64,000 bases of DNA from Candidatus Tayloriibacteriota bacterium (lineage in GTDB: Bacteria > Patescibacteriota > Minisyncoccia > Phycocordibacterales > PALSA-1337). The notes under the pieces are model-generated. The model was not told the origin of the DNA, ran no database searches, and saw nothing but the letters and a program-made list of their open reading frames with translations. The position numbers and the translations under genes were made by a program. Shown in pieces: positions 9,992 to 52,817 of this stretch. The stretch is taken from assembly GCA_903857825.1 (NCBI GenBank), contig CAIOGI010000001.1, forward strand, positions 40,698 to 104,697, read 5' to 3'. How positions within the stretch are numbered: the stretch's first letter is position 1; each line of letters opens with the position of its first letter.

Positions 9992-10016
9992 TATAGTCAA
10001 AATTATAATTAAAATT

Positions 10017-10064: not shown

Positions 10065-10068
10065 TCTC

Positions 10069-18372: not shown

Positions 18373-19493
18373 AATGGATTTTTTGCACCTCTAATCTCAA
18401 AGTGTATATGTGGTCCTGTTGACCTACCAGTAGATCCCAACTTTGCAATCATCTGTCCTTGCTCAACACTGTCTCCAACACTTACAAAGTTCTTCTGTGT
18501 ATGAGCATATAGTGTCTGAGATCCATTTGAATGTGAAATAATTGCATAATTACCATATCCACCATTGTATCCACCTGTCACACTGGCGATCACTATTCCT
18601 GCTGCAGAAGCTCTTATTGGAGTTCCTAGTGAAGCAGCCAGGTCAACAGCATTGTAACCATGCAAATCTTGAGACTTGTATCCTCCGACAATTGGACGAA
18701 TATAATATCCTGGGAAGTATTTACCATCAGCATCATGAAGGGGATTTGTGCTGGTTTTCTTTATCGCCAAAATCTTTGGAGTAGTTGCTGTATATGGTTC
18801 TGCGTCTGGAATTACAATAGTATCGCCAGGCATTATAACAGATGAAATTGTGAGATCATTGTATTGTAAGACTTCATTTAAATCTGTTTTGTATAGTTTA
18901 ACAATTCCTCTTATGGTATCACCCTTTTTGACAGTATAATTAATTCCAGAAATAGGCAAAATAACCAGCTTTTGACCTTCCTTTATTGTAAATCCTCTAG
19001 ACAGGTCGTTTGCCCAAATAATAGTATTCACAGTCACATCAAACATATCCGCAATCATTGAAAGAGTATCTCCCTCTCTAACGGTATAAAGACTTATTTG
19101 TGTATTTGTCCTTTCATTATCAATGTCTGACACTGTGCCCGAGGGTCCAATTTCTGCAACCAAAGAATTTCCAGATACGAGTGCTATATCCTCTGAAGTC
19201 TTGCCTGAATTTAATTCACGGTTAACGGCAGCCTGGAGAACTGGCATGCTTTGTGAGTTTGTGGCATTTTCTTCATCAAGAGTTTTGGCTGAAACCTTCT
19301 CATTTGTACTATCCATAAAATATGAAAAAAGGCCAGCATTCGTAGTTGCTGGGAGAGAAAAAGCTAAAGAAAATATAACAAAAAGAAATAAAGCAATCTT
19401 TGAAAAGATGCTTAAAAAGTTTATTTCCTTAGTATTATTTTTTTGTGAAAATTGCATAATATAAATAGGCTTTTGGCAATATCTGTATGACAT
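18369..19493 (-). CDS. Secreted LysM-domain M23 (LytM-type) peptidoglycan endopeptidase
   Basis: A signal/transmembrane N-terminus, two LysM-like repeats (YTVREGDTLSMIA..., YTVKKGDTIRGIV...) and M23 motifs HGYNAVDLA and GSTGRSTGPHIHFEI. Confidence 0.85.
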   Translation of the reverse strand: MSYRYCQKPIYIMQFSQKNNTKEINFLSIFSKIALFLFVIFSLAFSLPATTNAGLFSYFMDSTNEKVSAKTLDEENATNSQSMPVLQAAVNRELNSGKTSEDIALVSGNSLVAEIGPSGTVSDIDNERTNTQISLYTVREGDTLSMIADMFDVTVNTIIWANDLSRGFTIKEGQKLVILPISGINYTVKKGDTIRGIVKLYKTDLNEVLQYNDLTISSVIMPGDTIVIPDAEPYTATTPKILAIKKTSTNPLHDADGKYFPGYYIRPIVGGYKSQDLHGYNAVDLAASLGTPIRASAAGIVIASVTGGYNGGYGNYAIISHSNGSQTLYAHTQKNFVSVGDSVEQGQMIAKLGSTGRSTGPHIHFEIRGAKNPF

Positions 19494-19734
19494 CTATTAC
19501 GATGTGACGGAAGTATCAATCAATGCAGTAAATGGCTTTACTGAGCCACTCTTGTAACTATATTTAATAGGTACTTAATTAGACTACTTTAGCCCATAAC
19601 TAATGTCAATAGGCAGTGTGGAAAGAATATTTGATACAATCATTCTAGCAATCTGTCAAAAGCACAGTTGAAGTTGTTAAATATTATTGTCTAATATTTA
19701 TAAAAAACACGGTTAAGCATGTTATAGTTGTTTC

Positions 19735-21678
19735 ATGTCATCAGGAGAATTAAATCAGAGACAAAAAGAAGCGGTTGAGACCCTTGAAGGGCCCCTTCTT
19801 ATTCTTGCTGGCGCAGGTGCTGGCAAGACAAAGACCATAACCCACAGGATATTGAATCTTATAAAGTCTGGCATTCAGCCATCAAAGATCCTTGCCATAA
19901 CATTTACCAATAAGGCTGCCAAGGAGATGAGGGAACGAGTATTCGACCTGATTGAGAAAGACAAGAGTCTAAACATACCAATATCTTTCGCAGAAAGACC
20001 TTTTGTAAGCACGTTTCATTCACTTGGGGTTCATATAATCAAGGAAAATGCATCTTTATTGGGTATTACCAGACACTTCACCATATATGATCGCGGTGAT
20101 TCCAAAAGAGCAGTCAAGGACGCCCTTGAGCAAATAGGTTTAGATCCCAAACAGCATGATCCAGGAGCAATATTAAATGCTATATCTAGAGAAAAAGGTG
20201 ATGGGGTAACCTTTTCGGCTTATAGGGGAAAAAGTTCTAAAGAATTTTTTACAAAAATTGTTTCTCAAGTTTGGGAGAAGTATGAAGCGACCCTTCTGAA
20301 AGAGAAGTCGCTTGATTTCGACGATCTTTTATTAAAAACCGTGGTACTACTTGAAAATAATGAATCAGTGAGGGAGCATTATCAAAAAGTGTGGGAATAT
20401 ATTCATGTAGATGAATATCAAGACACAAATCAAGTACAGTATAAAATGGTACGCTTGCTAGGAGGACACAACAATGTGTGCGTTGTGGGGGACGGGGATC
20501 AAAACATATATTCATTTCGTGGTGCGAGTGTTAAAAATATTCTTGATTTTGAAAAAGATTTTCAGAATGCCAAAGTTATTACACTTGAAGAAAATTACAG
20601 GTCAACACAGACCATACTCACAGCAGCAAATAACGTCATAAAGAAAAATGTAATGCGTAGAGAAAAAAATCTCTATACAAAAAATGCTGAGGGTGAAAAA
20701 ATTGAATTATTAATTTCTTACATAGAGCAAGAAGAGGCCAGAATGGTTGCAGATGAGGCGAGAAAAAAAATTGATTCAGGAACCAATCCTAGGGATATAG
20801 CGGTCTTGTATAGGGCAAATTTTCAATCACGAGTCTTGGAGGAAGCATTTTTAAATAAAAACATTCCATATCAAGTCCTTGGAGTAAAGTTCTTTGAGAG
20901 AAGAGAGATTAAAGATGTCCTCTCATTTATCAAAGCATCTTTAAACAGAGACAGTACAAATGATTTAGTTAGAATTGTAAATGTTCCACCAAGGGGTATA
21001 GGGAAGGCCACGATTCTAAAGGTAATCACTGGGCAAGAAAATACGCTTGGACCAGCATTAAAAAATAAAGTTGCAACCTTTTTAAATTTGCTTGAAAGAA
21101 TAAAGGGTGTTGCATTAAAAGAGACACCATCACAATTAATAAAGTACATTATTCGCGAAAGTGGTATGGAAAATATATACAAAAATGGGACTTCGGAAGA
21201 GCAGGAAAAGCTTGAAAACCTTAGAGAATTAGTATCTGTAGCCACGCAATACGATTCATTACCTACTAACGAAGCTATAGAAAAGTTATTAGAAAATGCA
21301 GCATTAGCAACAGATCAAGATGAATTGGAAAAAGACAATAATGCTGTTCGTCTTATGACAGTTCACGCATCTAAGGGTCTTGAATTTGATTATGTATTTA
21401 TTGTTGGACTTGAGGAAGATCTATTCCCACATCAAAGATTAGGCAAGGAAGAGATAAGTATGTCCGAATCAGAAGAGGAACGTCGTCTTTTCTATGTAGC
21501 ATTGACTAGAGCAAGAAAAAAAGTATTCTTGAGTTATGCCCAACTTAGAACTATTTATGGCGCACAAAAAGTTAACGCTCCGTCAAGCTTTATTTCTGAT
21601 ATCGGAGACGAACACATAACGTCTGTTGGTGATGTGGAGGCCCCTAGAGGAATAAAGGCAATCTTCATCGACTTTTAA
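19735..21678 (+). CDS. pcrA: ATP-dependent DNA helicase PcrA/UvrD/Rep
   Basis: AGAGAGKTKT (Walker A), VDEYQDTN, and helicase motifs through to the C-terminus. Confidence 0.9.
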   Translation: MSSGELNQRQKEAVETLEGPLLILAGAGAGKTKTITHRILNLIKSGIQPSKILAITFTNKAAKEMRERVFDLIEKDKSLNIPISFAERPFVSTFHSLGVHIIKENASLLGITRHFTIYDRGDSKRAVKDALEQIGLDPKQHDPGAILNAISREKGDGVTFSAYRGKSSKEFFTKIVSQVWEKYEATLLKEKSLDFDDLLLKTVVLLENNESVREHYQKVWEYIHVDEYQDTNQVQYKMVRLLGGHNNVCVVGDGDQNIYSFRGASVKNILDFEKDFQNAKVITLEENYRSTQTILTAANNVIKKNVMRREKNLYTKNAEGEKIELLISYIEQEEARMVADEARKKIDSGTNPRDIAVLYRANFQSRVLEEAFLNKNIPYQVLGVKFFERREIKDVLSFIKASLNRDSTNDLVRIVNVPPRGIGKATILKVITGQENTLGPALKNKVATFLNLLERIKGVALKETPSQLIKYIIRESGMENIYKNGTSEEQEKLENLRELVSVATQYDSLPTNEAIEKLLENAALATDQDELEKDNNAVRLMTVHASKGLEFDYVFIVGLEEDLFPHQRLGKEEISMSESEEERRLFYVALTRARKKVFLSYAQLRTIYGAQKVNAPSSFISDIGDEHITSVGDVEAPRGIKAIFIDF

Positions 21679-22542: not shown

Positions 22543-23763
22543 ATGACTTGGTGTAATATGATAGTTACAATGAATAAGACATATTATAAAAGAAAAATTT
22601 ATTCGGCTCTTAAAGAGCATATGAACAGTAATGATGTGACGATTATTACTGGTATGCGTCGTACTGGAAAAACAACCCTGGTAGAACATTTATTAAGCGA
22701 AATTGACTCAAAAAATAAAATATTTCTAGATCTAGAGAAAATTAGTAATCAAGAACTATTTTCAGATAAAAACTATGATAATGTGATCATAAATCTAGAA
22801 CGGAGAGGCCTCACACAAAAAGAGAGAATGTTTGTGGCCCTTGATGAAATACAAACGATGCAAAATATTCCGAGTGTTATAAAGTATTTACATGATCATT
22901 ATAATATAAAGTTTATTCTGACTGGTTCAAGCTCTTATTACTTGAAAAACCAGTTCACTGAGTCCCTAGCTGGCAGAAAAATGCTTTTCGAACTTTTCCC
23001 TCTTGATTTTAGTGAATTTTTAACATTTAAAGAGATTCCGCACATAGCAACTAAAAATATTGAATTAATCAAGTCATTCGATACTAATGAATTTGATAGA
23101 TTGAAAGCATATTACGAAGAATACATAGAGTTCGGTGGTTTTCCAAAAGTTGTACTTGCACAAAAAATCGAAGAAAAGAAAAATATATTAGATGATATTA
23201 TAAGTTCATATATTAATATTGATATAAAAAGTATTGCTGATTTTAAAGAAAGCTCTTCAATAATAAATATAGCTAAAATGTTGGCTGGAAGAATAGGGAA
23301 TAAGCTAGATTATTCTAAAATATCACATCTTACAGGCCTTTCTCGACCAACAGTGCAAAATTATATTAGTTTATTTGAACAGACCTATCTCATTTCTCTG
23401 GTACCAGTCTTTACAAAGAATCAAGACAGAGAGATAGTAAAAGCCCAAAAAATATACTTCTCAGACAATGGTCTAGCCGGAATCCTTGCCGACATTGACA
23501 GTGGATCAAAGTTTGAAAATGCTATTTTCAATCAACTTCGTAAAAAAAATAATATAAAATATTTTTCATTAAAAAATGGCAATGAAATAGACTTTATAAT
23601 GGACAATAAACTAGGTTTAGAGGTAAAGGAAACACCCACAGGACATGATTTGAAAGATTTAAGTAATTTGTCTGAAAAAGCGGGAATAAGTTCATATAAA
23701 TTAGTTGGTAGACACAAAACACCAAATTTTTCTGAATATATGTGGGGAGGCAATATTCTATAA
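22543..23763 (+). CDS. AAA-domain ATPase with a C-terminal DUF4143-type domain. It is the cargo of a direct-repeat-flanked insertion.
   Basis: TGMRRTGKTT (Walker A) and FVALDEIQ (Walker B) in the architecture typical of the AAA_14/DUF4143 family. Confidence 0.7.
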   Translation: MTWCNMIVTMNKTYYKRKIYSALKEHMNSNDVTIITGMRRTGKTTLVEHLLSEIDSKNKIFLDLEKISNQELFSDKNYDNVIINLERRGLTQKERMFVALDEIQTMQNIPSVIKYLHDHYNIKFILTGSSSYYLKNQFTESLAGRKMLFELFPLDFSEFLTFKEIPHIATKNIELIKSFDTNEFDRLKAYYEEYIEFGGFPKVVLAQKIEEKKNILDDIISSYINIDIKSIADFKESSSIINIAKMLAGRIGNKLDYSKISHLTGLSRPTVQNYISLFEQTYLISLVPVFTKNQDREIVKAQKIYFSDNGLAGILADIDSGSKFENAIFNQLRKKNNIKYFSLKNGNEIDFIMDNKLGLEVKETPTGHDLKDLSNLSEKAGISSYKLVGRHKTPNFSEYMWGGNIL

Positions 23764-23871: not shown

Positions 23872-24753
23872 GTGAAGTATTCAACAAAAAAACCTGGAGC
23901 AAAAAATGTACTAATGATCCTGGTCGCCATCCTCCTGGTTGGTGGAGCTTTTACTTATGCGGAATATTCTAATAAAGAGGCAGAAACTGTATATAGTAAG
24001 CCAGATATTGAGATTGGAACTTCTACAAGTCAGTCCTATCAAAATTCACAGGATAGTACTGATTGGAAGAGAATACTTCTCGCCACGGACACTGTTGCAT
24101 CTAGTTCTGTTAATGATTTAACAAAAAAGCCAGCCCCTCTAACCCCCGCAGACCTATTGGCAAGAGATTTTTTTGCTAGATATATGGAATTAAAACAAAC
24201 AGGAGATACTGCAGATGAGGCCAGCAGACAAGAACTCATCAACAAAGTACTTCAAAATGGAACACTTGTTGCGACGCCGAAGGTCTACAGCCATGGTGAT
24301 ATTAAGACAAAAGTAGACAGTAGCACTGAATCCCTAAAGACTTACTACAATCAACTAGGAACAGTAGTAAAAACATATTCAATACAATACAGAAATGAAG
24401 CCATCATAGCCAAAGAGGCATTTGATAAGGCTGATATGAGCATACTCAAGGAGCTTGACCCAATTATTAAGAATAATAAGGCTCAACTTGATGCGTTTTT
24501 AAAAATTGTGGTTCCACAAACCGTTGTAAAAACACATTTAGATCTTGTAAACACAATGAGCTCTATAGTTTACATGGATGAAGGATTTAGAAACTCTGCA
24601 AATGACCCTTTTGCTGGCATACAATCAACCAGTTTGGTATTAAAAAATAATGACAGCCTTGTTTTGATACTAAAAAGCATTCAGAATACAATTTTTTCAA
24701 ATGATATTACCTTTACGCCCTCTGAAAATGGTTCATTGTTTACAAAACTATAA
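23872..24753 (+). CDS. Hypothetical membrane-anchored protein (an N-terminal transmembrane/signal anchor). An alternative ATG lies at 23914.
   Basis: The hydrophobic stretch LMILVAILLVGGAF. It is the first gene of a long co-directional envelope gene cluster. Confidence 0.4.
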   Translation: MKYSTKKPGAKNVLMILVAILLVGGAFTYAEYSNKEAETVYSKPDIEIGTSTSQSYQNSQDSTDWKRILLATDTVASSSVNDLTKKPAPLTPADLLARDFFARYMELKQTGDTADEASRQELINKVLQNGTLVATPKVYSHGDIKTKVDSSTESLKTYYNQLGTVVKTYSIQYRNEAIIAKEAFDKADMSILKELDPIIKNNKAQLDAFLKIVVPQTVVKTHLDLVNTMSSIVYMDEGFRNSANDPFAGIQSTSLVLKNNDSLVLILKSIQNTIFSNDITFTPSENGSLFTKL

Positions 24754-24758
24754 AATAT

Positions 24759-26321
24759 ATGAGAATTAATTTTTATAAAAAATTCATTCCGGCAATACTC
24801 ATGATAACGCTTCTTGCCCAACCGCTATTCTTTTTGAAGCCAGCGAAAGCAAGCGCAATCCCCGTAGTTGATGCCGGGGTTATAGCACAATTGGTTATTG
24901 CAAATATTTCTCTAGGAACACTGGTGGGGCAGTCAACTGCAGCTAATCTAAAAACCTTTACACTTGACGGCCTCGCTTGGATGCTTGCAAAAATGATAGT
25001 GCAACAAATAACAGTTAGTACTGTAAACTGGATCAACTCTGGCTTTGAAGGAAGCCCTGCCTTTGTAGAAAATCCTGGTTCATTTTTTCTTGATGTGGCT
25101 GATCAAGCAACAGGTCAGTTCATTACTGGAGGCCTTTTAGCGGATATGTGTTCACCATTTAGCATAGATATAAAAATAGCTCTTTCTTTTAAGTACAGAC
25201 CATACACACCAAAGAGGTACGCTTGTACAATAAGTACAATAATGAGAAATATGGTTAATGCAGGAAAAAATGCATCTATAAATGGGTTTACTGCTGGAGA
25301 TTTTAAACAGGGAGGGTGGCCGGCTTTTGCCTCACTGACAACAGAGCCACAAAATAATATATATGGTTCATATCTGCAAGCAGAAAGCGATCTATCATTC
25401 CGTGTAGCCTCGATACAAGGACAAAAGAAAGACGAGCTAGGAGCTGGAAGAGGATTCCTTTCAAAAGAGGTGTGTACAGAAAAAACTGTTGAAAGTTCTG
25501 ATTTTGAGGGAAATGTATCTAGTCAGCTAGTCAAAGACTGCAAGGTACAAACCCCTGGTTCAGTGATCGCTGGCACACTGGATAATCAACTCGCATCAGC
25601 CGGTCACTCACTTGAGCTTGCAGACTCAATAAATGAAATTGTTGGTGCTCTTTTTGCACAATTGGTAACAAAAGTTCTTCAGGGTGGACTTGGTGGATCA
25701 AGTGGTGGCGGTGCGGGTGATTCAGAATCATATATGAATCAAGTTCGTGATGAAATAAAGGGAAGTTCAGAACAAGTAGAATCAATAAAGGTAAAGCTCC
25801 TTGATCAAATAAAAACAATGACAATGCCTTCAAGTGCATACATGGATGCAAAAACATCATCACTAAACCTATTCCTTAATATAAAAGGCACATTTGATAA
25901 GGCTAGAAGCTGTTATGCAGCAAAAATTATTTATCTAACTTCATTACCAACTACGCCACACAATTCTGGATTAATTCAGCAGTATCGAAATCAAATAAGT
26001 ACAATTGATTCGACCGTAGCATCAACAATCACTCCACTAGTCACAAGATTACAGGCTGAAAAAGATGCGGCGTACAGAACGTCCTCCAATCTTACGCGTA
26101 TTGAAAATACTATAAGGGCGGCTGCAACATTAAATGATTTGATTGAACCTAGTCAAACCCTGTCCCAAATGGAGACGATAACAGGAGCAAATATGACAAT
26201 CAAAACACAGGAAGCAAAAAATGAGTATGAACAATTACGAAATGATGTTGCGCCTGACTTAAATCAGACCGCCAGATCTATGCTAAACAACTGCCTAGCA
26301 CAACCAGGTCCTTCTATATAA
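24759..26321 (+). CDS. Secreted protein (signal peptide) with a Gly-rich linker and a C-terminal coiled-coil. It is a component of the T4SS-like cluster.
   Basis: The signal peptide is MRINFYKKFIPAILMITLLAQPLFFLKPAKASA. No enzymatic motif. Confidence 0.45.
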   Translation: MRINFYKKFIPAILMITLLAQPLFFLKPAKASAIPVVDAGVIAQLVIANISLGTLVGQSTAANLKTFTLDGLAWMLAKMIVQQITVSTVNWINSGFEGSPAFVENPGSFFLDVADQATGQFITGGLLADMCSPFSIDIKIALSFKYRPYTPKRYACTISTIMRNMVNAGKNASINGFTAGDFKQGGWPAFASLTTEPQNNIYGSYLQAESDLSFRVASIQGQKKDELGAGRGFLSKEVCTEKTVESSDFEGNVSSQLVKDCKVQTPGSVIAGTLDNQLASAGHSLELADSINEIVGALFAQLVTKVLQGGLGGSSGGGAGDSESYMNQVRDEIKGSSEQVESIKVKLLDQIKTMTMPSSAYMDAKTSSLNLFLNIKGTFDKARSCYAAKIIYLTSLPTTPHNSGLIQQYRNQISTIDSTVASTITPLVTRLQAEKDAAYRTSSNLTRIENTIRAAATLNDLIEPSQTLSQMETITGANMTIKTQEAKNEYEQLRNDVAPDLNQTARSMLNNCLAQPGPSI

Positions 26322-28330
26322 TGAAATTAATGAAAAAATTCTTTGCTACAATTCTAGTAATAATAATGGTCCTAACTGTAATGGGAGTAGTTACTGTTCC
26401 ACAAACAGCGAATGCAGCTTGTGCAAATCTTCTAAGTTTTAATTTCGGCGAATGTGTTACAGAGGGTACGGCTTGGGTGGGAAATATTCTATTAACCATG
26501 ATGAGTTATTTATTAACAGTTACTGGAACAATTCTAAGCTTTTCGATAAAAATAACACTAAATATAAAAAATATATACGACGGAACTCCAGCAATAAATA
26601 ATGTCTGGGTAATTGTGAGAAACTTGTCGAGCATGTTTATCATATTTATGCTTATGTATAGTTCGATACAAACTATTTTAGGAATAGGAAGTGCAAATGT
26701 TAAAACACTTATTGGAAAAATAATTATTGCTGGTCTACTAATAAACTTTAGTCTTTTCTTTACCAAAGTAGCCATAGATGCTTCAAATCTTATATCAATG
26801 CAATTTTATAGAGCAATAGCGCCACAGTCTGCGTCTCAAAATCTAAGCGGCTGGTCTAATGAATACTACGATGGGGGTCTATCAGACGTATTCATGTCTG
26901 CGCTAAAAATTCAAAGCATCTATCATCCAAGCAATACTGAAATAAAAAATGCTGGAAGCAAGGGGGAGGGAACAGTATGGATGTCAATAATAATAGCGAC
27001 TTATGGCGGAGTACTACTCATGTTGTTTGCAGCAATAAGTTTCTTGGGTGCTTCTGTAGCATTTACAATACGAACTGGTATGCTACTTCTATTAATGGCA
27101 TTTTCTCCTATATATTTCGCTGGAATGATATTCCCAAAAATTAAAAGTGATATTTCTGATAAATGGCTTAAATACCTTACTAATCAGCTTATTTTTATGC
27201 CTGTTTATCTCCTATTGATGTATGTGGCACTAACGATTGTAAGTGACAAAGGTTTTATGTCGTTCATAAGTAGTGGGAATCTCCAAGACAATGCTAAGGG
27301 CTCAGTTGTTATACTTATCGGTATTTGTATTCAGTATTTTATTGCAATATTCTTTATAAACGTACCTCTTATAGGAGCACTGCAGTCCGGGGCTATGGGA
27401 GCTGGTTTTGCAGAGAGCATGACAAAAGGTCTGAAAGATAGAATATATAAACAACCAGGGGCAGTGGCTTCATTTGCGGCTCAACACGGTGTTGGTCGTG
27501 GGGCTAGAGCTATTTCAGAGAGGCTGGCAACAAGCAATTTTGCCGCAAGGAATCCTTCATTGGCAATAATGGCTGATAAGGGATTAGGGAAGATTTCTGG
27601 AAACGCATTTGGTGGAAAAAAGGGTGGATATGATAAGAGGGTGGCTGAGTATGTTAAAGAAAGATCTGAATATGCAACAAAAAGATATGGACTGACGACA
27701 GACAAGAAACAAGACATTGAACAAGCAACTGAAAAAGAATTGAAGGGTAAAATGGCAGAATGGGCTGAAAATAAAAATCAAAAAATAAAGGAGTCAGAGA
27801 ACAATGCCAGTGTAGCAAAAGATTTACTATTAAACTTAGAAAAAGAAAACTCTAGAATAGCAGGTGAAGCCGCCTCACTTCAGAAAGAATATAGCGATGC
27901 AAAAGTCTTGTCAGGCGAAGATAGTCCACTAACAATAAAAATAAAGGATAGATTAGATGAAATAAATAAAATATTAAAAGAAAAGACTAAACAGATTGAA
28001 AATTCACGTCAAGCTATTAAAAATACTGAGAAAGAATTTGAAAAAGCAAACTTTGAAGCAAGCGAGCTAGCTAAGACTAGACATGAAGCCAGTCAAAAAA
28101 TAGAAATTGAGAAGAGGATAAAGAAGGAAACACGAGAGGGTGTGTCCGAAAAATTTGCTGAAAACCTTGATCAGGATTGGAATCCATTTACAAGAGAGGC
28201 AAGCAAGAAAGCTGCGAATGCAATTAGAGCTGGTAAACTCAAATCAGAACAGGAAATTAATTATGAAAAGGCATTAAAAGACTTAACTAGTGGGTTTGTA
28301 AAGAAAGAGGATGATGATGAGAAGAAATAA
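26321..28330 (+). CDS. Polytopic inner-membrane protein resembling VirB6/TrbL, with a long C-terminal coiled-coil tail
   Basis: A signal peptide, about six transmembrane helices, then a K/E-rich coiled-coil of roughly 200 aa. It lies in the same operon as a VirB4-like ATPase. Confidence 0.5.
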   Translation: MKLMKKFFATILVIIMVLTVMGVVTVPQTANAACANLLSFNFGECVTEGTAWVGNILLTMMSYLLTVTGTILSFSIKITLNIKNIYDGTPAINNVWVIVRNLSSMFIIFMLMYSSIQTILGIGSANVKTLIGKIIIAGLLINFSLFFTKVAIDASNLISMQFYRAIAPQSASQNLSGWSNEYYDGGLSDVFMSALKIQSIYHPSNTEIKNAGSKGEGTVWMSIIIATYGGVLLMLFAAISFLGASVAFTIRTGMLLLLMAFSPIYFAGMIFPKIKSDISDKWLKYLTNQLIFMPVYLLLMYVALTIVSDKGFMSFISSGNLQDNAKGSVVILIGICIQYFIAIFFINVPLIGALQSGAMGAGFAESMTKGLKDRIYKQPGAVASFAAQHGVGRGARAISERLATSNFAARNPSLAIMADKGLGKISGNAFGGKKGGYDKRVAEYVKERSEYATKRYGLTTDKKQDIEQATEKELKGKMAEWAENKNQKIKESENNASVAKDLLLNLEKENSRIAGEAASLQKEYSDAKVLSGEDSPLTIKIKDRLDEINKILKEKTKQIENSRQAIKNTEKEFEKANFEASELAKTRHEASQKIEIEKRIKKETREGVSEKFAENLDQDWNPFTREASKKAANAIRAGKLKSEQEINYEKALKDLTSGFVKKEDDDEKK

Positions 28331-28346
28331 GATAAAAATATAAAAT

Positions 28347-29117
28347 ATGGATATACAAGAAATATTAAAAGATAGATACAAGGTTTTACCACCAGATATG
28401 CAAAAAGTTATCTCTGGTTCTGATTACTATTTGAAACTAACTGAAATATGTAAAAAATATAATCTACATGTTGACCAAAGCGGGGCACTGCAAACAGAAA
28501 CCATATTGGTAATGCTAGGACTTGAATCCGCAAATAGCTATAGTTCTAATATTCAAAATGCTCTTGAGATATCTAAAGAAAGTGCAGACCGTATTGCAAA
28601 GGATATTAGCGATTCAATATTTGTTGAAGTGCGTGACTCGCTAAAGAAGATAGATGAAATGCGTAATTTACCTGAAAATACCCATAGTTCAGTGGATATA
28701 CTCATAGATAGGGGAATCCCATTAAATTCAGTACCCAAAAATCCTATAGCTCCACCGATAATCACCCCCTACACCAAAGCCCCACAAACAATACCAGATC
28801 AAAAAACATTAAGGGAAGCGACGTCAGAACAAGGACCTACTCAAATTCCAATAAGTAAAACAATATCAAATATAGAAAGAGTCGGGCAGTTTAAAGTAGA
28901 GAAAGACCCATTATCCTCATCTCCTCAATATAAAGAAGACAATATAAATAGGGAAGCACTACTTAAACAAATTGAGGATGCACCTGTTCCATTAGTAGAC
29001 CATTTACTTGCAAATCCTATTATCAATTCTAATAAAACTCAGACTGAGAAAGAAGTTCCAAATAAAAGTGTTGATAATAAATCATATTCATTAGATCCGT
29101 ATAGAGAACAGATATAA
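28347..29117 (+). CDS. Hypothetical soluble protein
   Basis: An ORF within the operon, with 16-bp spacing to the preceding gene. Confidence 0.4.
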   Translation: MDIQEILKDRYKVLPPDMQKVISGSDYYLKLTEICKKYNLHVDQSGALQTETILVMLGLESANSYSSNIQNALEISKESADRIAKDISDSIFVEVRDSLKKIDEMRNLPENTHSSVDILIDRGIPLNSVPKNPIAPPIITPYTKAPQTIPDQKTLREATSEQGPTQIPISKTISNIERVGQFKVEKDPLSSSPQYKEDNINREALLKQIEDAPVPLVDHLLANPIINSNKTQTEKEVPNKSVDNKSYSLDPYREQI

Positions 29118-29138
29118 TAAGTATGGTAAAATAAAAGA

Positions 29139-29567
29139 ATGCAATATCAAGTTCCACAATTTATTGAAGTTGAGGATAAAATATTTGAAAAAATAACACT
29201 AAAGCAATTTATTTATCTTGCTGGAGGTGCTGGATTATCTTTTCTTATATACAAAATTGCAGGATCATTGATAATAGCGGCAATACCTATACTCATAGTC
29301 CTATCATTTTCAATAGCATTAGCTTGGTATAGGCTATATAGTCGTTTTCCTTTCATAGAAGTTGTTGAATGGATGTTCAAATATTTTACATCTTCTAGAT
29401 TATACATATGGAAGAAGGTAGATAAAAAACCCTCAGCGAATCCTGTCAAAGAAGTAAAGGAATATGCATCAATACTAGTGCCCAAAATTTCAGACAGCAA
29501 ATTAAAAGACCTCACATGGAGTTTGGATATTAAAGATAGTGTGTATAGTAATAAAAACCAAAATTAA
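29139..29567 (+). CDS. Small two-transmembrane membrane protein, possibly VirB3/PrgI-like
   Basis: Two adjacent hydrophobic helices. It is located just upstream of the VirB4-like ATPase. Confidence 0.4.
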   Translation: MQYQVPQFIEVEDKIFEKITLKQFIYLAGGAGLSFLIYKIAGSLIIAAIPILIVLSFSIALAWYRLYSRFPFIEVVEWMFKYFTSSRLYIWKKVDKKPSANPVKEVKEYASILVPKISDSKLKDLTWSLDIKDSVYSNKNQN

Positions 29568-29569
29568 AT

Positions 29570-30202
29570 ATGGCACAATCAACAAAAACCACACAAGACT
29601 TTGTACCAATACAAGAAATACGAGATGGAATCGTCGTTCTTAAAGATGGAACCATGCGTTCAATTGTATTGGCTTCTTCGTTAAACTTTGCATTAAAATC
29701 ATCCGATGAACAAAATGCCATAATTTCTCAATTCCAAAATTTCCTGAATTCTCTTGATTTTTCAGTGCAGATATTCATACAATCAAAAAAACTAGATATA
29801 AGACCATATTTGGGGCTATTAGAAGACAGGTACAAGGATCAAGTTACTGAACTGATGAAAATACAGACCAGAGAGTATATTGAATTCATAAGAACGTTTG
29901 TAGAAAATTCTAGCATTATGACAAAGAGTTTTTTTGTTGTCGTCCCATATAGTCCAGTGAGTATTTCTACATCCAATAATCCTATTAATAAATTCATGAA
30001 AAAAGAAGGGGAGGAAAAGGTATTGGCAAACGAGAAGTTCGAAGAATACAGAAGCCAACTAGAACAAAGAACGGGTGTTGTGGAACAGGGCTTGGTTCGA
30101 TGTGGTATACGCGTTGCAGAACTTGGTACAGAGGAGGTTGTAGAATTATATTATAAGATATTCAATCCTGGAGAAACTGAGAAGCCTATTCAGATAAACT
30201 AG
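29570..30202 (+). CDS. Hypothetical protein of the T4SS-like cluster
   Basis: An ORF tightly spaced with its neighbours. Confidence 0.4.
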   Translation: MAQSTKTTQDFVPIQEIRDGIVVLKDGTMRSIVLASSLNFALKSSDEQNAIISQFQNFLNSLDFSVQIFIQSKKLDIRPYLGLLEDRYKDQVTELMKIQTREYIEFIRTFVENSSIMTKSFFVVVPYSPVSISTSNNPINKFMKKEGEEKVLANEKFEEYRSQLEQRTGVVEQGLVRCGIRVAELGTEEVVELYYKIFNPGETEKPIQIN

Positions 30203-30231
30203 CCTTAAAACTGATTAAATAAATAATAAAT

Positions 30232-32064
30232 ATGAGTATATTTTCAAAATTATTTGCAAAAAAAGAAGAATCTCCAATTGTTTCTCTGATGCCACAGGAA
30301 ATATATGAGGCTGGAGTGCTTGAACTAAAAGATGTCATTGCTCCATCTGCATTAAAAATAACACCAAAAGAAATAAACCTAGGCGAGAAAATGGCTAGAA
30401 CGTTTTTTGTCATATCATATCCTAGATTTTTAACAGAAAGTTGGTTTGCTCCTATTATTAATCTAGACAAAGTTTTTAATATTTCAATTTTCATTCATCC
30501 AATAGACACAGCAAAGATACTTAGACACTTTCAAAAAAAGGTTGCTGAGGTTCAAAGTCAGATATCCACAAGAGAGGATAAGGGTTTGGTTCGTGATCCA
30601 ATGCTTGATACAGCATACCAGGACCTTGAATCATTACGCGATAACCTAATGCAGGCACAGGAAAAGCTTTTTGATGTTGGTGTATATATTACAATCTTTG
30701 GTGACTCGACTTCTGACCTAGACAAGATAGAGTCTGAGATGAAGTCCATACTCGAATCAAAGCTTGTTTATGTAAAACCAGCACTATTTCAACAAGAAAG
30801 TGGCTATAAGAGTGTTCTACCAATAGGGGATGATCAGTTAATGGTTCATTCGAAGCTGAATTCCTCACCACTTTCAAGTCTTTTCCCATTTGTTTCCTTT
30901 GACCTTACGTCTGACAAGGGTATATTGTACGGTATAAATCGACACAACTCATCACTTGTGCTGTTTGATAGATTCCTACTAGAAAACTACAATTCTGTCA
31001 CATTTGCAAAGGCAGGATCTGGAAAATCATACTGTACGAAGCTAGAGATACTTAGAACTTTGATGTTCGATACTGAGGTTATTGTTATTGATCCAGAAAA
31101 AGAATATGAGTACATGGCAGAAGCTACTGGTGGCAAATATTTTAATATTTCTTTAAATTCAGAACATCATATCAATCCTTTTGATCTTCCGATTCCAAGA
31201 GAAGATGAATCTGCTGCAGATATATTACGTTCAAACATTATAAACCTTGTAGGATTGTTCAGAATAATGCTTGGAGGTCTTACTCAGGAAGAAGATGCAA
31301 TAATAGACAGAGCCATTACAGAAACCTATGCTCTTAAAGATATTTCTCCTGAATCAGACTTTAGAAATGTTGAGCCCCCAATGCTTTCTGACTTTGAACT
31401 AGTACTAGCCGGAATGGAGGGTGCGGAATCGCTGGTGGAAAGATTGACGAAGTATACAAAGGGAACATGGTCTGGTTTCATAAACCGTCCATCAAATGTT
31501 GATATAAATAAGAAATTCGTCGTTTTCTCTCTTAGGGACATGGAGGATGAGTTGAAGCCTGTAGCGATGTATATAGTCACACATTATATATGGAATGCTA
31601 TTAGAAAAAATCTCCGAAAACGTCTTTTGGTCATAGATGAGGCTTGGTGGATGATGAAATCAGAAGATACGGCCTCATTCTTGCTTGGACTAGCAAAAAG
31701 AGGTAGAAAATACTATCTTGGACTTGCAACAATAACACAAGACGTTGATGATTTCTTGAAATCACCATATGGTCTTCCAATTATTACTAACTCATCTATT
31801 CAAATTCTATTAAAACAATCTCCTTCTTCTATTGATAATGTTCAGAGGACTTTTAATCTAACGGATGAAGAAAAGTATCTGCTTCTAGAATCAGATGTTG
31901 GAGAGGGTATATTCTTTGTCGGATTGAAGCATGTGGCATTAAAAGTGGTTGCTTCGTACACAGAAGATCAGATAATCACCACAAACCCTGCACAGGTTTT
32001 AGCTATTAAACAAGCAAAGCAGGATCTGGAAGCTTCTCAGCAGGGTGGTGCTGGGGTACAATAA
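30232..32064 (+). CDS. VirB4/TraC/TrbE-family conjugation/type IV secretion ATPase
   Basis: N-domain ...TFFVISYPRF.... Walker A FAKAGSGKSY, DPEKEY and Walker B LLVIDEAWWMM. Confidence 0.8.
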   Translation: MSIFSKLFAKKEESPIVSLMPQEIYEAGVLELKDVIAPSALKITPKEINLGEKMARTFFVISYPRFLTESWFAPIINLDKVFNISIFIHPIDTAKILRHFQKKVAEVQSQISTREDKGLVRDPMLDTAYQDLESLRDNLMQAQEKLFDVGVYITIFGDSTSDLDKIESEMKSILESKLVYVKPALFQQESGYKSVLPIGDDQLMVHSKLNSSPLSSLFPFVSFDLTSDKGILYGINRHNSSLVLFDRFLLENYNSVTFAKAGSGKSYCTKLEILRTLMFDTEVIVIDPEKEYEYMAEATGGKYFNISLNSEHHINPFDLPIPREDESAADILRSNIINLVGLFRIMLGGLTQEEDAIIDRAITETYALKDISPESDFRNVEPPMLSDFELVLAGMEGAESLVERLTKYTKGTWSGFINRPSNVDINKKFVVFSLRDMEDELKPVAMYIVTHYIWNAIRKNLRKRLLVIDEAWWMMKSEDTASFLLGLAKRGRKYYLGLATITQDVDDFLKSPYGLPIITNSSIQILLKQSPSSIDNVQRTFNLTDEEKYLLLESDVGEGIFFVGLKHVALKVVASYTEDQIITTNPAQVLAIKQAKQDLEASQQGGAGVQ

Positions 32065-32069
32065 TATAC

Positions 32070-32522
32070 ATGGCAGGAGAAATAAAACATAAGATAAGCA
32101 AACAAGCAACGTATATTCTAATTGGCCTAGCTGGAATTGCTGATATATTTACATTTATACCTTTTGTTGGTGATTTTGTAGGATGGATATTCTGGATAAT
32201 AATGTCTGTAGTTTTCTGGAAACTTGGATTGGGATTAGTAAATTACAGAAAGCTGACAAGTATGCTCATATCAACCGCAATAGAATTCATTCCTTTTGTA
32301 CAAATGTTGCCATCGATCACAGCCGCTATGGCTGCTATTATCTTTTTTAGTAGAATCGAAGAGAAAACGGGTCTAAAAATACTACCGACAAAAACAAAAC
32401 CAGGCATAACGAGACCAAATATAAGAAAAGCCCCGTTAAATTCTCAGTCAGGTATCAGACAACCGAGAAACATAGTAAAACTTGAGCAGCCCGTTGACGA
32501 AGGGTTGGATATTGCTGCGTAA
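32070..32522 (+). CDS. Small integral membrane protein (2-3 transmembrane helices)
   Basis: ILIGLAGIADIFTFIPFVGDFVGWIFWIIMSVVFW. Confidence 0.45.
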   Translation: MAGEIKHKISKQATYILIGLAGIADIFTFIPFVGDFVGWIFWIIMSVVFWKLGLGLVNYRKLTSMLISTAIEFIPFVQMLPSITAAMAAIIFFSRIEEKTGLKILPTKTKPGITRPNIRKAPLNSQSGIRQPRNIVKLEQPVDEGLDIAA

Positions 32523-32634
32523 GTGGGGAAATGCGCTTGATAAGACAGGAGGAATCTTTTTGTACAACTAATTTCACACGAGCTGTACACAGTGAATGAT
32601 GAAATAGAAGTGCCCTTGTGGTAAAATATATGTA

Positions 32635-33651
32635 ATGAAAAAACTTTTATCAATAACTTTTATACTTGTTTTATCTCTATCTTTTTCATACACAAATGCC
32701 CAAGTACAACAGGGAATAGATGGCGTAGAAATATACTCTAAACCAAAGAATCCAGCCGAGTATCAGAATGTTACACTATATCTGGAAAGCTTTTTAGAGG
32801 ACCTAGACTCCTCATCCATAATCTGGATGATTAATGGTAAAACAGAGGCTCACGGCGTTGGAATGAAAGAACTTCAGGTTATCGCTCCAAAAACAGGTAA
32901 AACATTAGTGGCTGTTGCAATAATAAAAACAAGTGCTGGAAAGGAAATAAAAAAAAGTTTTGTTATAAAATCTGGTTCTGTAGATATTGTGTTTGAAAGC
33001 AAGGGATATGTTCCACCATTCTATAAAGGTAAGAACTTTTTTTCCTATCAAAACTGGATAAGACTTGTTGCAATACCACACCTATCGGTTGACGGTGTGA
33101 CCGAAGTTAGTCCAAAGAATCTTATCTATGTTTGGAAGCGCGGAGGTAAATACATAGAAGGTGGGAAGGGTTATGGCAAGCAAAGCGTAGACATAAAGGC
33201 TGATGATGTACCAAAAACACTTGAGGTATCTGTCGAAGTATACACAAGAGATCAAAGCCAATTTGCTTCTGCCACACTTAATATCAACCCCACAGAACCA
33301 ACCGTGCTTATTTATGAAATGAGTCCTCTATATGGAGTTTTGTTTAATAAAGCATTGATAGATAAGATCACACTTGATAGTTCAGAAATAAGTATGCTAG
33401 CTGCTCCGTTTGGTTTTAATTACAATTCAAAAACCAATCAATTAAAGTACAATTGGTCAATAAACAATGTAGAGCAGACAAACTTAGTTAACAATCAAAG
33501 TATTGTATTAAAGACAACAGGGGAGGTTGATGGTAGCTCGGATGTAAATATTGATATTAGAAGCAATACCGAAATGCTTCAAGGAGCTTATTCGTCAGTA
33601 AGAGTTAATTTTAAAAAAGCAACAACAAATAATGATAGCGTAATATTTTAA
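32635..33651 (+). CDS. Secreted protein (signal peptide) that is beta-rich
   Basis: MKKLLSITFILVLSLSFSYTNA followed by a hydrophilic mature protein. Confidence 0.45.
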   Translation: MKKLLSITFILVLSLSFSYTNAQVQQGIDGVEIYSKPKNPAEYQNVTLYLESFLEDLDSSSIIWMINGKTEAHGVGMKELQVIAPKTGKTLVAVAIIKTSAGKEIKKSFVIKSGSVDIVFESKGYVPPFYKGKNFFSYQNWIRLVAIPHLSVDGVTEVSPKNLIYVWKRGGKYIEGGKGYGKQSVDIKADDVPKTLEVSVEVYTRDQSQFASATLNINPTEPTVLIYEMSPLYGVLFNKALIDKITLDSSEISMLAAPFGFNYNSKTNQLKYNWSINNVEQTNLVNNQSIVLKTTGEVDGSSDVNIDIRSNTEMLQGAYSSVRVNFKKATTNNDSVIF

Positions 33652-33653
33652 AC

Positions 33654-34796
33654 ATGAAAAAGATTTTTATATTCATACTCATACTAGCAATATTAATACC
33701 AATATCAATTAGGGCGGCAGATGAATACACCCTACTTGAACCCCTGCCTTGTATTGAGGGAACTGGAAACACTTGTACTGCTGGGGCAACAAGCACACCC
33801 ACAATGAACATAGAGACCTATATTGGGTATATATTTAAATTTGCTATAGCTATTTCTGCATTCTTGGCGATAATAATGATAATATATGGCGGTTTTGAAA
33901 TAATGCTAAGCGAGGCTGTGCCAGCAAAAATGGACGGCAAGGAAAGAATAAAGAATGCTATATTTGGATTAATAATGGTTTTGGCTTCATATCTTATTCT
34001 AAGAACAATAGATCCAAGGTTAGTAGAAATAAATACAAGAATTGCACCAATAGATACAGCCCGTCTAATCGCAGAAATGAAAGATTTTCACGAGAAGCTA
34101 AATAGTGATATAAATAATTCGGTTAGAATAAATAATGCAAGTTCAAAGGCTTCTTTAGAACAATTAGATAGATTAAATAATTACAAGCAACAACTTGAAG
34201 ATACTTTGGAAATGGCAAATATCACAGACAACGAAAGAGATTTCTTTGAAGCCGAGCTAGAACAAGCAACAAGAAGCATAAACTCAGTTAAGTCTGAAAA
34301 AAACCTAAGTGAGGCCAATAGTAGTGGATTATCACATTTTAAAAGAGCCACCTCAATAATAAACAATCCAAATGCTGATAGCAGTGATCTTGCCACACTA
34401 AACTCTGAATATTTAAATCAAGATTCCATGAGTACATCTGTGTATACAACATATCAAGCCAAGATTCTTGATGCTGAATCAAGAAGAAATACTGCAGAGT
34501 CTGACCTTTTAATAAAACAGAGGGATTTCTTTATTAACCAAATAAAAGAAGAGAAGATATTAAAAGACAAAATAATAACTCACAAAACTACAGGAGTAGT
34601 AAATAATAGTGGCAGCTGGTCTCCAACGTCTGTCGGAGAGATTAATAATACAGTATTCCTTGAAAGCTATATCGAAGAATCGCGTAATGAGCTAATAAAC
34701 CCCACAAAGATTGTGGGAACGGGAATTGATCCTGTGGTATACACAACCATGCTGCAAACCAGAATTGATAAGTTAAACAAAGCCCTAAACAAATAA
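33654..34796 (+). CDS. Signal peptide plus a double-transmembrane hairpin (VirB2/TrbC pilin-like topology), followed by a roughly 250-aa coiled-coil extension
   Basis: MKKIFIFILILAILIPISIRAADEY..., then two hydrophobic helices (FAIAISAFLAIIMIIYGG / AIFGLIMVLASYLIL). Confidence 0.4.
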   Translation: MKKIFIFILILAILIPISIRAADEYTLLEPLPCIEGTGNTCTAGATSTPTMNIETYIGYIFKFAIAISAFLAIIMIIYGGFEIMLSEAVPAKMDGKERIKNAIFGLIMVLASYLILRTIDPRLVEINTRIAPIDTARLIAEMKDFHEKLNSDINNSVRINNASSKASLEQLDRLNNYKQQLEDTLEMANITDNERDFFEAELEQATRSINSVKSEKNLSEANSSGLSHFKRATSIINNPNADSSDLATLNSEYLNQDSMSTSVYTTYQAKILDAESRRNTAESDLLIKQRDFFINQIKEEKILKDKIITHKTTGVVNNSGSWSPTSVGEINNTVFLESYIEESRNELINPTKIVGTGIDPVVYTTMLQTRIDKLNKALNK

Positions 34797-34797
34797 C

Positions 34798-36090
34798 ATG
34801 CAAAAAGTATTTATAGCCAGCATATCAATAGTGATACTTATCCTTATCGGTGCAGGGGTGTATTGGTATGTGAACAAAGACATAGTCTCACAGTTACCAG
34901 CAACTACTGAGGGTGAAACAAGAGATCCTTTTGTTCCACTTAACAGAAATGGAATTACAGCAGAGAATCCAAACACCCCAACAAATCAGAATGAAAATAC
35001 TGAGCCCACAACACCATCGAACAACGCATCTTTTAAAATGCCCAAGCTTAGACAATTGAGCAACACGCCAGTAGCAGGAATGTATGCCAGCACAACAAAA
35101 ATAAGGGATTTAAATTTCTCAAGCACAACAATTGAAAAAACAATAGTTCGTTTTGTCGACAGGGGAACTGGGCACATATACGAAGCAAATGATAGTGATT
35201 TAAATATAGAAAAACTATCAAACACGACACTTCCAAAGATCTATGAGGCTTTTTGGAATAAAAACCTAACAGCAATGGTTGTGAGATATTTAAAGGACAA
35301 TACAGACATGATCACAAACTTTTATGCTGAAGTAAGGTCAAATCCAAACTCAACAGCATCTTCTACAACATCGTTCGAAGTTAAGGGTAAATATTTATCT
35401 CCAAATATTAACCAAGTAGCTGTATCTCCAGAAGGTAACAGAATATTTACATGGAATATTGAAAACGATAGCGGTGTTGGCTATTTATCATCTTTTGATG
35501 AAAAAGGTAAAACAAAAATAATAGATACTCCGCTAACCCAAATGAATATTGACTGGCCAGCAACATCTACAGTTACACTAACCACTCGCGGATCGGGTTT
35601 TTCTTTGGGATATATGTATGCAATAAACACAAAAAACGCCTCTACACGTAAACTATTTGGTGGAATTCGTGGTATATCTGCCAAAATGAGTAGGGATGGC
35701 AAGAATGTTATTTATTCTACTGGTGGAAACAATCTTACCTTAGGACTTTTCAATACAAACAAGTCTGAATTCACAGAAGTCATGTTCAATACGATCGCAG
35801 ACAAGTGTGTGTGGAGCTCAATCAGAACAAATGAAGCCTACTGCGCTGTTCCAAACGAAACACCTGCCGGAGTGTATCCCGATGATTGGTATAAGGGTAA
35901 AATCTTGTTTACAGATAAAATATGGCACCTAGACACAACGACAGGGGAAGTGCACTTATTGGCAAACCTTCTTGATCTTTCAAATAAACTGATTGACGCT
36001 ACTGAACTTGTACTTGATCCAAAAGAGAATTATTTATACTTTATAAACAAAAGGGATTTGACGCTTTGGGCACTAGATCTAAACCAGTAG
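34798..36090 (+). CDS. N-terminally anchored extracytoplasmic protein that is beta-rich. It is the last gene of the cluster.
   Basis: The transmembrane anchor ISIVILILIGAGVYWYV. Confidence 0.45.
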   Translation: MQKVFIASISIVILILIGAGVYWYVNKDIVSQLPATTEGETRDPFVPLNRNGITAENPNTPTNQNENTEPTTPSNNASFKMPKLRQLSNTPVAGMYASTTKIRDLNFSSTTIEKTIVRFVDRGTGHIYEANDSDLNIEKLSNTTLPKIYEAFWNKNLTAMVVRYLKDNTDMITNFYAEVRSNPNSTASSTTSFEVKGKYLSPNINQVAVSPEGNRIFTWNIENDSGVGYLSSFDEKGKTKIIDTPLTQMNIDWPATSTVTLTTRGSGFSLGYMYAINTKNASTRKLFGGIRGISAKMSRDGKNVIYSTGGNNLTLGLFNTNKSEFTEVMFNTIADKCVWSSIRTNEAYCAVPNETPAGVYPDDWYKGKILFTDKIWHLDTTTGEVHLLANLLDLSNKLIDATELVLDPKENYLYFINKRDLTLWALDLNQ

Positions 36091-51399: not shown

Positions 51400-51417
51400 C
51401 TAAGACCACCCCACCAA

Positions 51418-52814: not shown

Positions 52815-52817
52815 ATT

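Follow-up and report, generated by a model that had tools for sequence, protein, structure and literature searches.

Patescibacteria account for a large part of the diversity of bacteria and rely on host cells, and in the one species tested, Southlakia epibionticum, transposon sequencing found its type IV secretion system (T4SS) genes and a pilin array to be essential for epibiotic growth (Wang 2023, Cell, PMC10633639; PMC12857230). VirB4, the ATPase of these systems, was found in 2,417 of 3,035 Patescibacteria genomes, where it forms a monophyletic clade nested in MPF_FATA (Quiñonero-Coronel et al. 2025, Microb Genom, PMC12102498). That survey described the system in 2,407 assemblies. Among its accessory components TrsD was the commonest; genes for PrgI/VirB3, VirB6 and VirB2-like pilins (PF18895 or others) stood near virB4, relaxases were very few, and type IV coupling proteins (T4CPs) were seldom linked to virB4. 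The loci lie close to dnaA, dnaN, rnpA and ksgA, especially in Paceibacteria (PMC12102498). The function of the Patescibacterial T4SS has been called unknown (2025 review PMC12857230; 2024 perspective PMC11665869). Here we describe a block of eleven genes, at positions 23872-36090 of a 64,000-nucleotide stretch (the window) of contig CAIOGI010000001.1 from a Candidatus Tayloriibacteriota bacterium, and compare it with these and other T4SSs.

A conserved gene block beside the replication origin

We interpret the block as a chromosomal T4SS of the Patescibacteria clade, derived from MPF_FATA, in a Taylorbacteria/Paceibacteria-like genome and beside the replication origin (probability about 0.8). 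A preliminary description of this DNA had proposed a T4SS-like envelope machine of a candidate phyla radiation (CPR) or episymbiotic bacterium, and this proposal holds: the VirB4, PrgI/VirB3 and pilin genes pass the cutoffs of their models, and relaxase, coupling protein and VirB11 are missing from the window. The genes considered here are the following (topologies come from a simple hydropathy scan read alongside the translations).

23872-24753, plus strand: g0, 293-aa N-anchored (bitopic) envelope protein with one transmembrane segment, placed by synteny
24759-26321, plus strand: g1, 520-aa secreted protein, candidate VirB5-like stalk or tip subunit (signal peptide; TrbJ/VirB5/DUF4141-type N-terminus)
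26321-28330, plus strand: g2, 669-aa polytopic membrane protein, VirB6-like in fold, whose coiled-coil tail is variable and basic
28347-29117, plus strand: g3, 256-aa acidic protein, probably cytoplasmic, with a C-terminal DPYRE motif
29139-29567, plus strand: g4, 142-aa PrgI/VirB3-like small membrane protein (Pfam PrgI PF12666; hairpin)
29570-30202, plus strand: g5, 210-aa TrsD/TraD-like protein (NCBIfam TrsD; PF26593)
30232-32064, plus strand: g6, 610-aa VirB4-family ATPase (NCBIfam conju_CD1110; Walker motifs)
32070-32522, plus strand: g7, 150-aa small polytopic membrane protein with 3-4 hydrophobic segments
32635-33651, plus strand: g8, 338-aa secreted beta-rich protein (signal peptide; weak Ig-like match)
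33654-34796, plus strand: g9, 380-aa protein with a VirB2-type pilin domain and a ~250-aa extension (Pfam T4SS_pilin PF18895)
34798-36090, plus strand: g10, 430-aa N-anchored beta-rich protein (one N-terminal transmembrane segment; weak TolB match)
18369-19493, minus strand: LysM and M23 peptidase (Pfam Peptidase_M23 and two LysM domains)

The ten co-directional plus-strand open reading frames (ORFs) first described at 24759-36090 are all present in the ORF listing at exactly those coordinates. The eleventh conserved gene, g0, has a GTG start and ends 5 bp 5' of g1; it is part of the block, which begins one gene before 24759. The stop of g1 abuts or overlaps the start of g2. Gene callers have picked shorter starts for g1 and g2 elsewhere, but the consensus N-termini of both families favor the long ones. 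Intergenic gaps of 0-30 bp had been described; they are 0-29 bp throughout except between 32522 and 32635, where the gap is 112 bp.

To follow the block in other genomes, we scanned 185,579 species genomes with a profile of g2 and assessed synteny by tblastn. The scan yielded 80 loci; their labels were Taylorbacteria, Paceibacteria, other Patescibacteria or unclassified bacterial metagenome-assembled genomes (MAGs). In virtually every locus that is long enough, the order is comM, M23 peptidase, uvrD, ksgA, g0 to g10, yidC, rnpA and dnaA, so the conservation of the block in related genomes, which the preliminary description had left to be checked, extends across up to 80 loci. Among these, g0 was syntenic in 62, g3 in 64, g8 in 57 and g10 in 51; g7, which is short and divergent, was detected by tblastn in 24. 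The block is not a chance pattern of ORFs, since dozens of related genomes share its gene order, with proteins that are 25-97% identical.

In the window, pnp, comM, the minus-strand LysM/M23 peptidase, uvrD and ksgA lie upstream of the block, and yidC, rnpA, dnaA, dnaN, a PBP1-type penicillin-binding protein gene and tyrS/trpS lie downstream. The GC content of the cluster (0.33-0.38) equals that of its flanks. A scan of the window's ORFs of at least 120 aa detected no relaxase, T4CP, VirB11 or adjacent integrase, in agreement with the earlier statement that relaxase, VirD4 and VirB11 are not visible there, and a full conjugative element immediately next to the cluster was likewise looked for in the window and not found. 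Since the block sits between ksgA and yidC-rnpA-dnaA, with its order kept in 80 loci, it is a core chromosomal system and not an integrative and conjugative element (ICE).

Three observations concern the immediate surroundings of these genes. The 112-bp non-coding gap at 32523-32634, between g7 and g8, interrupts an otherwise dense operon; ORF and Rfam searches found neither an ORF nor an RNA family in it, and it may hold an internal promoter. A scan for promoters and terminators was uninformative, terminator-like sites being scarcer than in shuffled sequence, with 0 plus-strand terminators between the genes. Between ksgA and g0 lies an AAA_14/DUF4143 ATPase gene (22543-23763, plus strand), which looks like a strain-specific insertion because it occupies this position in 0 of the 80 related loci and yet is present in assemblies of the identical strain. 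Further upstream, comM and uvrD/pcrA, with the M23 peptidase gene between them, occupy 16843-21678; their linkage to the block may have a functional basis or may reflect only a shared place near oriC.

A VirB4 motor with TrsD-like and PrgI/VirB3-like partners

The strongest assignment is that of g6, which scores 370.9 bits against the VirB4-like NCBIfam model conju_CD1110 (cutoff 325) and also matches Pfam P-loop_TraG (93.2 bits), AAA_10 and DUF87. The 610-aa protein has an intact Walker A (AGSGKS) and an intact Walker B (VIDEAWW), and so contains the GSGKS and DEAWW named in the preliminary description; the VirB4 assignment is confirmed by a curated hidden Markov model (HMM). An HMM of the g6 family matches PrgJ of pCF10 (1e-49), TrsE of pSK41 (1e-38) and TrwK of R388 (4e-5). 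By these sequence comparisons, g6 is a VirB4-family ATPase and the predicted motor of the system, and its nearest affinity is to the VirB4 of MPF_FATA.

Upstream of it, g4 forms a hydrophobic hairpin and scores 31.1 bits against Pfam PrgI PF12666 (gathering score 27). It is a PrgI/VirB3-like protein that would anchor VirB4 to the membrane. The two-transmembrane VirB3/PrgI-like gene of the preliminary description is thus present at 29139, whereas the ORF at 29570 (g5) has no transmembrane segment and resembles TrsD and the N-domain of VirB4; the hydropathy scan found no hydrophobic segment in g5, and likewise none in g6. Against NCBIfam TrsD, g5 aligns over profile positions 11-200 of 201 (E 1.6e-7) at a score under the curated cutoff of 200 bits. 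It also matches the N-terminal regions of the VirB4_plasma, CD1110, VirB4_CagE and TrbE models, all under their curated cutoffs, and an identical protein carries the precomputed Pfam label PF26593, TraC-like. Because the TrsD match spans the full profile and the VirB4, TrbE and CagE matches are N-terminal, we take g5 to be a free-standing homologue of the VirB4 N-domain. The order g4-g5-g6 equals that of trsC-trsD-trsE of pSK41.

We note one further match of g5, to PHROG 2666 (terminase large subunit; N-terminal profile positions 5-89, E 1e-6). It is the only PHROGs match in the cluster, and we treated it as uninformative.

A pilin with a hypervariable extension

The preliminary description had seen in g9 a pilin-like double-transmembrane hairpin followed by a C-terminal part of 250 aa, and both are borne out. 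The protein has a signal peptide and two transmembrane helices; residues 52-117 match Pfam T4SS_pilin PF18895 at 29.4 bits (gathering score 26.6), and there is a match to the NCBIfam Mbov_0395 pilin-like model (E 0.0011). No other ORF in the window is pilin-like. Column identity across its family is 0.44-0.68 in the pilin domain (residues 1-130) and 0.14-0.30 in the C-terminal extension of ~250 aa. The pilin domain is conserved, and the extension is hypervariable and fast-evolving.

The same division runs through the whole block. The syntenic VirB4 proteins of 64 related MAG loci are 73-97% identical to g6, with a median of 88% that is the highest in the neighborhood; the medians are 73% for g5 and 59% for g4 (69 loci). 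The flanking housekeeping genes are less conserved than VirB4 (uvrD 67%, dnaA 67%, comM 64%), and g0, g1, g2, g3, g8, g9 and g10 have medians of only 31-39% (34% for g0). The motor is under very strong constraint, while the envelope and surface parts evolve fast. Together with the hypervariable pilin extension, this pattern of identity fits a conserved motor that carries host-facing, fast-evolving surface parts.

Candidate stalk and platform proteins

Directly 5' of the VirB6-like gene, g1 encodes a secreted protein whose mature N-terminus, AIPVVDAG, resembles that of TrwJ/VirB5 of R388 (AQGIPVFDG). In its orthologues the mature protein begins with the consensus A-Q-W-x-V-x-D-x-G-N-x-V-Q-N-T-I-T-A. 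In the Pfam and NCBIfam searches g1 itself matches neither the TrbJ nor the DUF4141 models, and the likeness appears at the level of the family. Pfam DUF4141 is matched by 21 of 54 orthologues (best E 8.4e-10), two of them above the gathering score, and the three NCBIfam families matched most often (by 10, 6 and 5 of the 54) are all TrbJ, with a best E of 2.9e-5 and every match below the cutoff. The alignment with TrbJ is colinear, pairing protein residues 7-79 with profile positions 4-74. DUF4141 proteins of Bacteroides conjugative transposons have been listed beside traJ, near traG (PMC10434189). The g1 family is very large, comprising 4,733 clusters at 50% identity (E<=1e-10).

An AlphaFold2 model of g1 contains a three-helix bundle at residues 340-515, with a predicted local distance difference test (pLDDT) score >90. 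The model is of low confidence over the N-terminal two thirds, and the conserved N-terminal domain is poorly modelled. A search of PDB sequences with the g1 profile returned coiled-coil noise only. We propose g1, whose N-terminus is of the TrbJ/VirB5/DUF4141 type and whose C-terminal part is predicted to be a three-helix bundle, as a candidate VirB5-like stalk or tip subunit. In classical systems, VirB5/TrbJ starts pilus assembly.

The adjacent g2 combines a signal or anchor segment with five or more transmembrane helices, and its C-terminal tail of ~250 aa is a variable, basic coiled coil. The preliminary description had called it VirB6/TrbL-like and had named failure at HMM thresholds as the outcome that would speak against this. 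Pfam and NCBIfam gave no match at threshold, so on that test the assignment failed: TrbL matches among 47 homologues are weak only (E 0.005-0.18), hhalign of the g2 family with R388 TrwI gives 21% probability, and the g2 profile retrieves coiled-coil noise only from PDB sequences. Comparison of folds gave a different outcome, with TrwI/VirB6 of R388 the top natural match by two methods. We therefore accept for the g2 model a VirB6-like fold, while membership in the VirB6 family by sequence is unproven. Taken together, these results suggest that a VirB5/TrbJ-like protein pairs with VirB6.

Remaining partners

The earlier calls of secreted and N-anchored proteins stand: the 338-aa and 380-aa proteins (g8 and g9) have signal peptides, and the 430-aa protein (g10), as well as the 293-aa one (g0), is N-anchored. 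The transmembrane segment of g0 spans residues 12-30. The protein is without a Pfam or PDB match, although many of its homologues carry the bacterial TSP3 repeat PF18884, which is degenerate in the copy in the window. We also considered g0 as an analogue of VirB8 and found no support, its homologues carrying TSP3 repeats instead.

No transmembrane segment or signal peptide was detected in g3, whose N-terminal domain is helical, whose middle is variable and rich in proline, and whose C-terminus carries DPYRE. That motif (D250-P-Y-R-E254) is invariant across 45 orthologues whose overall column identity is only 21%, and it might act as a signal for docking or secretion. The protein has no match in Pfam, NCBIfam, PHROG or PDB. 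For g7 we found a weak match to DUF4112 (E 0.007). The signal peptide of g8 ends in YTNAQ, and its family profile weakly matches the Ig-like protein Hoc of phage T4 (E 0.0017); it is probably built of Ig-like domains. Weak matches to five chains of the beta-propeller protein TolB (best E 0.012) came from the g10 family profile, and g10 is probably a TolB-like beta-propeller. Searches of Pfam, NCBIfam and PHROG found no toxin-like or enzyme domain in the cluster.

The upstream peptidase gene at 18369-19493 (Peptidase_M23, 98.7 bits) keeps its position in 44 of the 80 related loci. VirB1 candidates with M23/LysM domains have been described, and VirB1 homologues are tied to virB4 mainly in Paceibacteria (PMC12102498). 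The peptidase is possibly the cell-wall hydrolase of the machine, a VirB1 analogue, but its membership is uncertain: we connect it with the T4SS only by inference, because the gene is on the opposite strand, 4.4 kb upstream.

Comparison with known systems

The cluster agrees closely with the T4SS of Southlakia (SEML1_0006-0019) and with those of the 2025 survey. It has an MPF_FATA-type VirB4 preceded by TrsD and PrgI, a VirB6-like polytopic protein and a PF18895 VirB2-like pilin within the cluster; neither a relaxase nor a coupling protein is nearby, the locus is chromosomal beside dnaA, rnpA and ksgA, and the source is patescibacterial. It differs from Southlakia in having a single pilin gene with a ~250-aa variable extension instead of an array of six short pilins. 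As further differences, no NTF2/VirB8-like protein was recognized, and no peptidase or lysozyme gene lies directly 3' of virB4, the M23/LysM gene being upstream on the other strand. Finally, a TrbJ/VirB5/DUF4141-like g1 precedes the VirB6-like g2; we found no mention of a VirB5-like component of the Patescibacteria T4SS in the main texts of PMC10633639 and PMC12102498 or in the supplements of PMC10633639.

With the Gram-positive MPF_FATA plasmids (pSK41/pGO1 trs, pCF10 prg/pcf) the cluster shares a CD1110-family VirB4, the order trsC(VirB3)-trsD-trsE(VirB4) and a monoderm architecture that lacks VirB7, VirB9 and VirB10. In contrast to them it is chromosomal, vertically conserved and not mobile, and it lacks a relaxase, a T4CP (PcfC/TrsK), a PrgK/TrsG-type hydrolase in the operon, a PrgB adhesin and a single-stranded DNA-binding protein. 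When HMMs of the 11 ortholog families were compared with all ORFs of pCF10, pSK41 and R388, VirB4 alone gave a significant match, and the other eight families match no ORF of pCF10 or pSK41. Alignment by hhalign of the family profiles with single PrgC/D/F/G/H/I/L, TrsA-L and TrwF/G/I/J/L/M sequences gave nothing above 21.5% probability.

Of the stalk and pilus-biogenesis module of the MPF_T systems (R388 Trw, Agrobacterium VirB), the cluster has analogues of VirB2 (g9), VirB3 (g4) and VirB4 (g5 and g6) and candidate analogues of VirB5 (g1) and VirB6 (g2). As in trwJ-trwI of R388, the VirB5-like gene stands directly 5' of the VirB6-like gene, with the g2 fold matching TrwI and the mature N-terminal motif of g1 matching TrwJ/TrbJ. 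Unlike in R388/VirB, there is no VirB7, VirB8, VirB9 and VirB10 core, no VirB11 and no VirD4: Pfam and NCBIfam gave no match for VirB7 to VirB11, and the family HMMs miss TrwG, TrwF, TrwE and TrwD of R388. The proteins also differ in size, since g1 has 520 aa against ~226 aa for VirB5, with a likeness that is N-terminal only, g2 has a long coiled-coil tail and the pilin g9 a large extension. The DotA-IcmX protochannel of Legionella Dot/Icm, which belongs to a wholly different T4SS class (IVB), shows no sequence similarity, and no other Dot/Icm component is present here.

The cluster is thus a correct rediscovery of a published system, whose composition and position near oriC were already known from work of 2023-2025 (PMC10633639, PMC12102498, PMC12857230). 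The preliminary description had suggested that most partner proteins could be novel. This is right only in part, given that earlier work and given the TrsD-like gene at 29570 and the gene with a TrbJ/VirB5-type N-terminus at 24759. The residual novelty lies in the VirB5/TrbJ-like call for g1, the extended hypervariable pilin and a defined set of conserved class-specific partners, and the assignment of g1 is the one possible addition to what had been described.

Proposed function and alternative explanations

In the scheme that follows, we infer the function of each step from the homology of the components described above. VirB4 (g6) and its free-standing N-domain homologue TrsD (g5) would form a cytoplasmic motor that PrgI/VirB3 (g4) tethers to the membrane. 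A VirB6-like membrane platform would be made of g2, with the secreted g1 resting on top in the manner of R388's VirB5-VirB6 stalk. VirB4 would then pull the VirB2-type pilin g9 out of the membrane and polymerize it on the g1/g2 platform, giving a surface filament that displays the variable C-terminal domains of g9. The proteins g0, g7, g8 and g10 may form a scaffold that spans the monoderm wall. Such a machine would serve contact, and probably exchange, with the host cell of an obligate epibiont; conjugation is not its likely purpose, because no relaxase or coupling protein accompanies the cluster. A more specific version of this scheme is tentative, and we would not bet on it: that the Paceibacterial T4SS is a complete VirB2-VirB3-VirB4-VirB5-VirB6 pilus module with g1 as stalk or tip, that the hypervariable g9 extension is a filament-borne determinant of host specificity, and that g3 and the lineage-specific g0, g7, g8 and g10 are new monoderm subunits.

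Several points weigh against reading the cluster as a pilus-building T4SS. Neither g1 nor g2 of the window matches any T4SS model, and their likeness to VirB5 and VirB6 lies below curated thresholds. The TrbJ matches of the g1 family span only ~50-75 N-terminal residues, signal peptide included, and a Foldseek search of the PDB with the g1 model returned generic helical bundles only and no VirB5. The scaffold roles of g0, g3, g7, g8 and g10 are weakly indicated, by topology and weak profile matches, and a pilin with a 250-aa extension may not polymerize like VirB2. No pilus or substrate has been demonstrated for a Patescibacterial T4SS, whose role has been described as completely unknown (PMC11665869). 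Moreover, VirD4 homologues occur in many Patescibacteria, mostly far from virB4 (PMC12102498), so the genome may have a coupling-protein gene outside the window.

Alternatively, the machine might inject proteins, for instance g3, into the host bacterium to manipulate it. As a cytoplasmic protein encoded in the operon, with a disordered middle and an invariant motif at its extreme C-terminus, g3 has features of a substrate, and T4SS substrates typically bear C-terminal signals. Protein export or an alternative role has also been suggested for the Southlakia system, given the absence of a coupling protein and relaxase (Wang 2023, PMC10633639). However, most effector T4SSs require a T4CP (exceptions are Ptl and Brucella VirB; PMC12102498) and none is present here, g3 could equally well be a structural or regulatory cytoplasmic subunit, and the cluster encodes no toxin-like or enzyme domain. 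We therefore regard a dedicated effector translocator as unlikely. Uptake of DNA or nucleotides, similar to the ComB system of H. pylori or the archaeal Ced system and feeding host DNA to an organism unable to make nucleotides, seems to us less probable again. It would agree with the missing relaxase and T4CP, with comM and uvrD/pcrA conserved immediately upstream, with the occurrence of ABY1-class T4SS loci beside comF, recG and radA (PMC12102498) and with the proposal that T4SSs are a candidate route of nucleotide acquisition (PMC11665869). Yet comM, uvrD and ksgA are housekeeping genes typical of the vicinity of the origin, and their linkage may be positional only. The match of g6 to NCBIfam CedB (DNA import) is weak (E 1.2e-7), covering only 75 residues of the ATPase core far under the 700-bit cutoff, no DNA-binding component was identified in the cluster, and there is no experimental evidence for uptake from any Patescibacterium.

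An ordinary or decaying conjugative element, such as the remnant of an MPF_FATA-type ICE or plasmid in the chromosome, can be rejected as highly improbable. The best VirB4 model is indeed the CD1110 conjugal-transfer family, the PrgI/TrsC-TrsD-VirB4 order is that of pSK41, and other parts of the window contain a tyrosine recombinase gene as well as toxin-antitoxin, Fic and Bro-N genes. On the other hand, there is no relaxase, T4CP, origin-of-transfer (oriT)-associated gene or flanking integrase in the window, and 20 kb, with housekeeping genes among them, separate the cluster from the nearest recombinase. The GC content is that of the flanks, and dozens of divergent genomes have the cluster at the same place, between ksgA and yidC/rnpA/dnaA. 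In addition, VirB4 is under stronger purifying selection than dnaA and uvrD, which is the opposite of decay. We thus retain the interpretation of a chromosomal Patescibacteria-clade T4SS. As a clean and compact example from the class Paceibacteria the locus mainly confirms published work; its practical value is an annotated parts list that includes the invariant VirB4 partners in the class and shows the envelope and surface parts to be far less conserved than the motor (VirB3, TrsD, VirB4). If the pairing of VirB5 with VirB6 is true, a mechanism of pilus assembly, as opposed to a bare channel, becomes directly testable.

Other features of the window

The pilB gene, which had been noted as lying apart from the cluster at 49263-50933, is confirmed as T2SSE (Pfam). 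The Rfam search returned a tRNA-Lys as the sole match in the window and none in the cluster. The tyrosine recombinase gene lies at 1978-4176 on the minus strand and encodes Phage_integrase and a SAM-like N-domain; it is split by an intein that bears a LAGLIDADG homing endonuclease domain, for a total of 732 aa. A segment at 51073-52003 (plus strand) has a GC content of ~0.45 against a background of 0.35 and may have been acquired horizontally. Two small ORFs in it, of 108 and 136 aa, encode signal-peptide or lipoprotein-like products and are overlapped by long ORFs in other frames; the segment has no Rfam match. Toxin, defense and mobile-type genes are scattered beside housekeeping genes at 5737-11450, 45855-46691 and 52548-53180. 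They comprise two copies of Bro-N, Fic, an AbiEii toxin with its upstream partner, and a RelE/YafQ-like toxin with its antitoxin, the RelE/YafQ-like call being a reading of the translation and not an HMM match.

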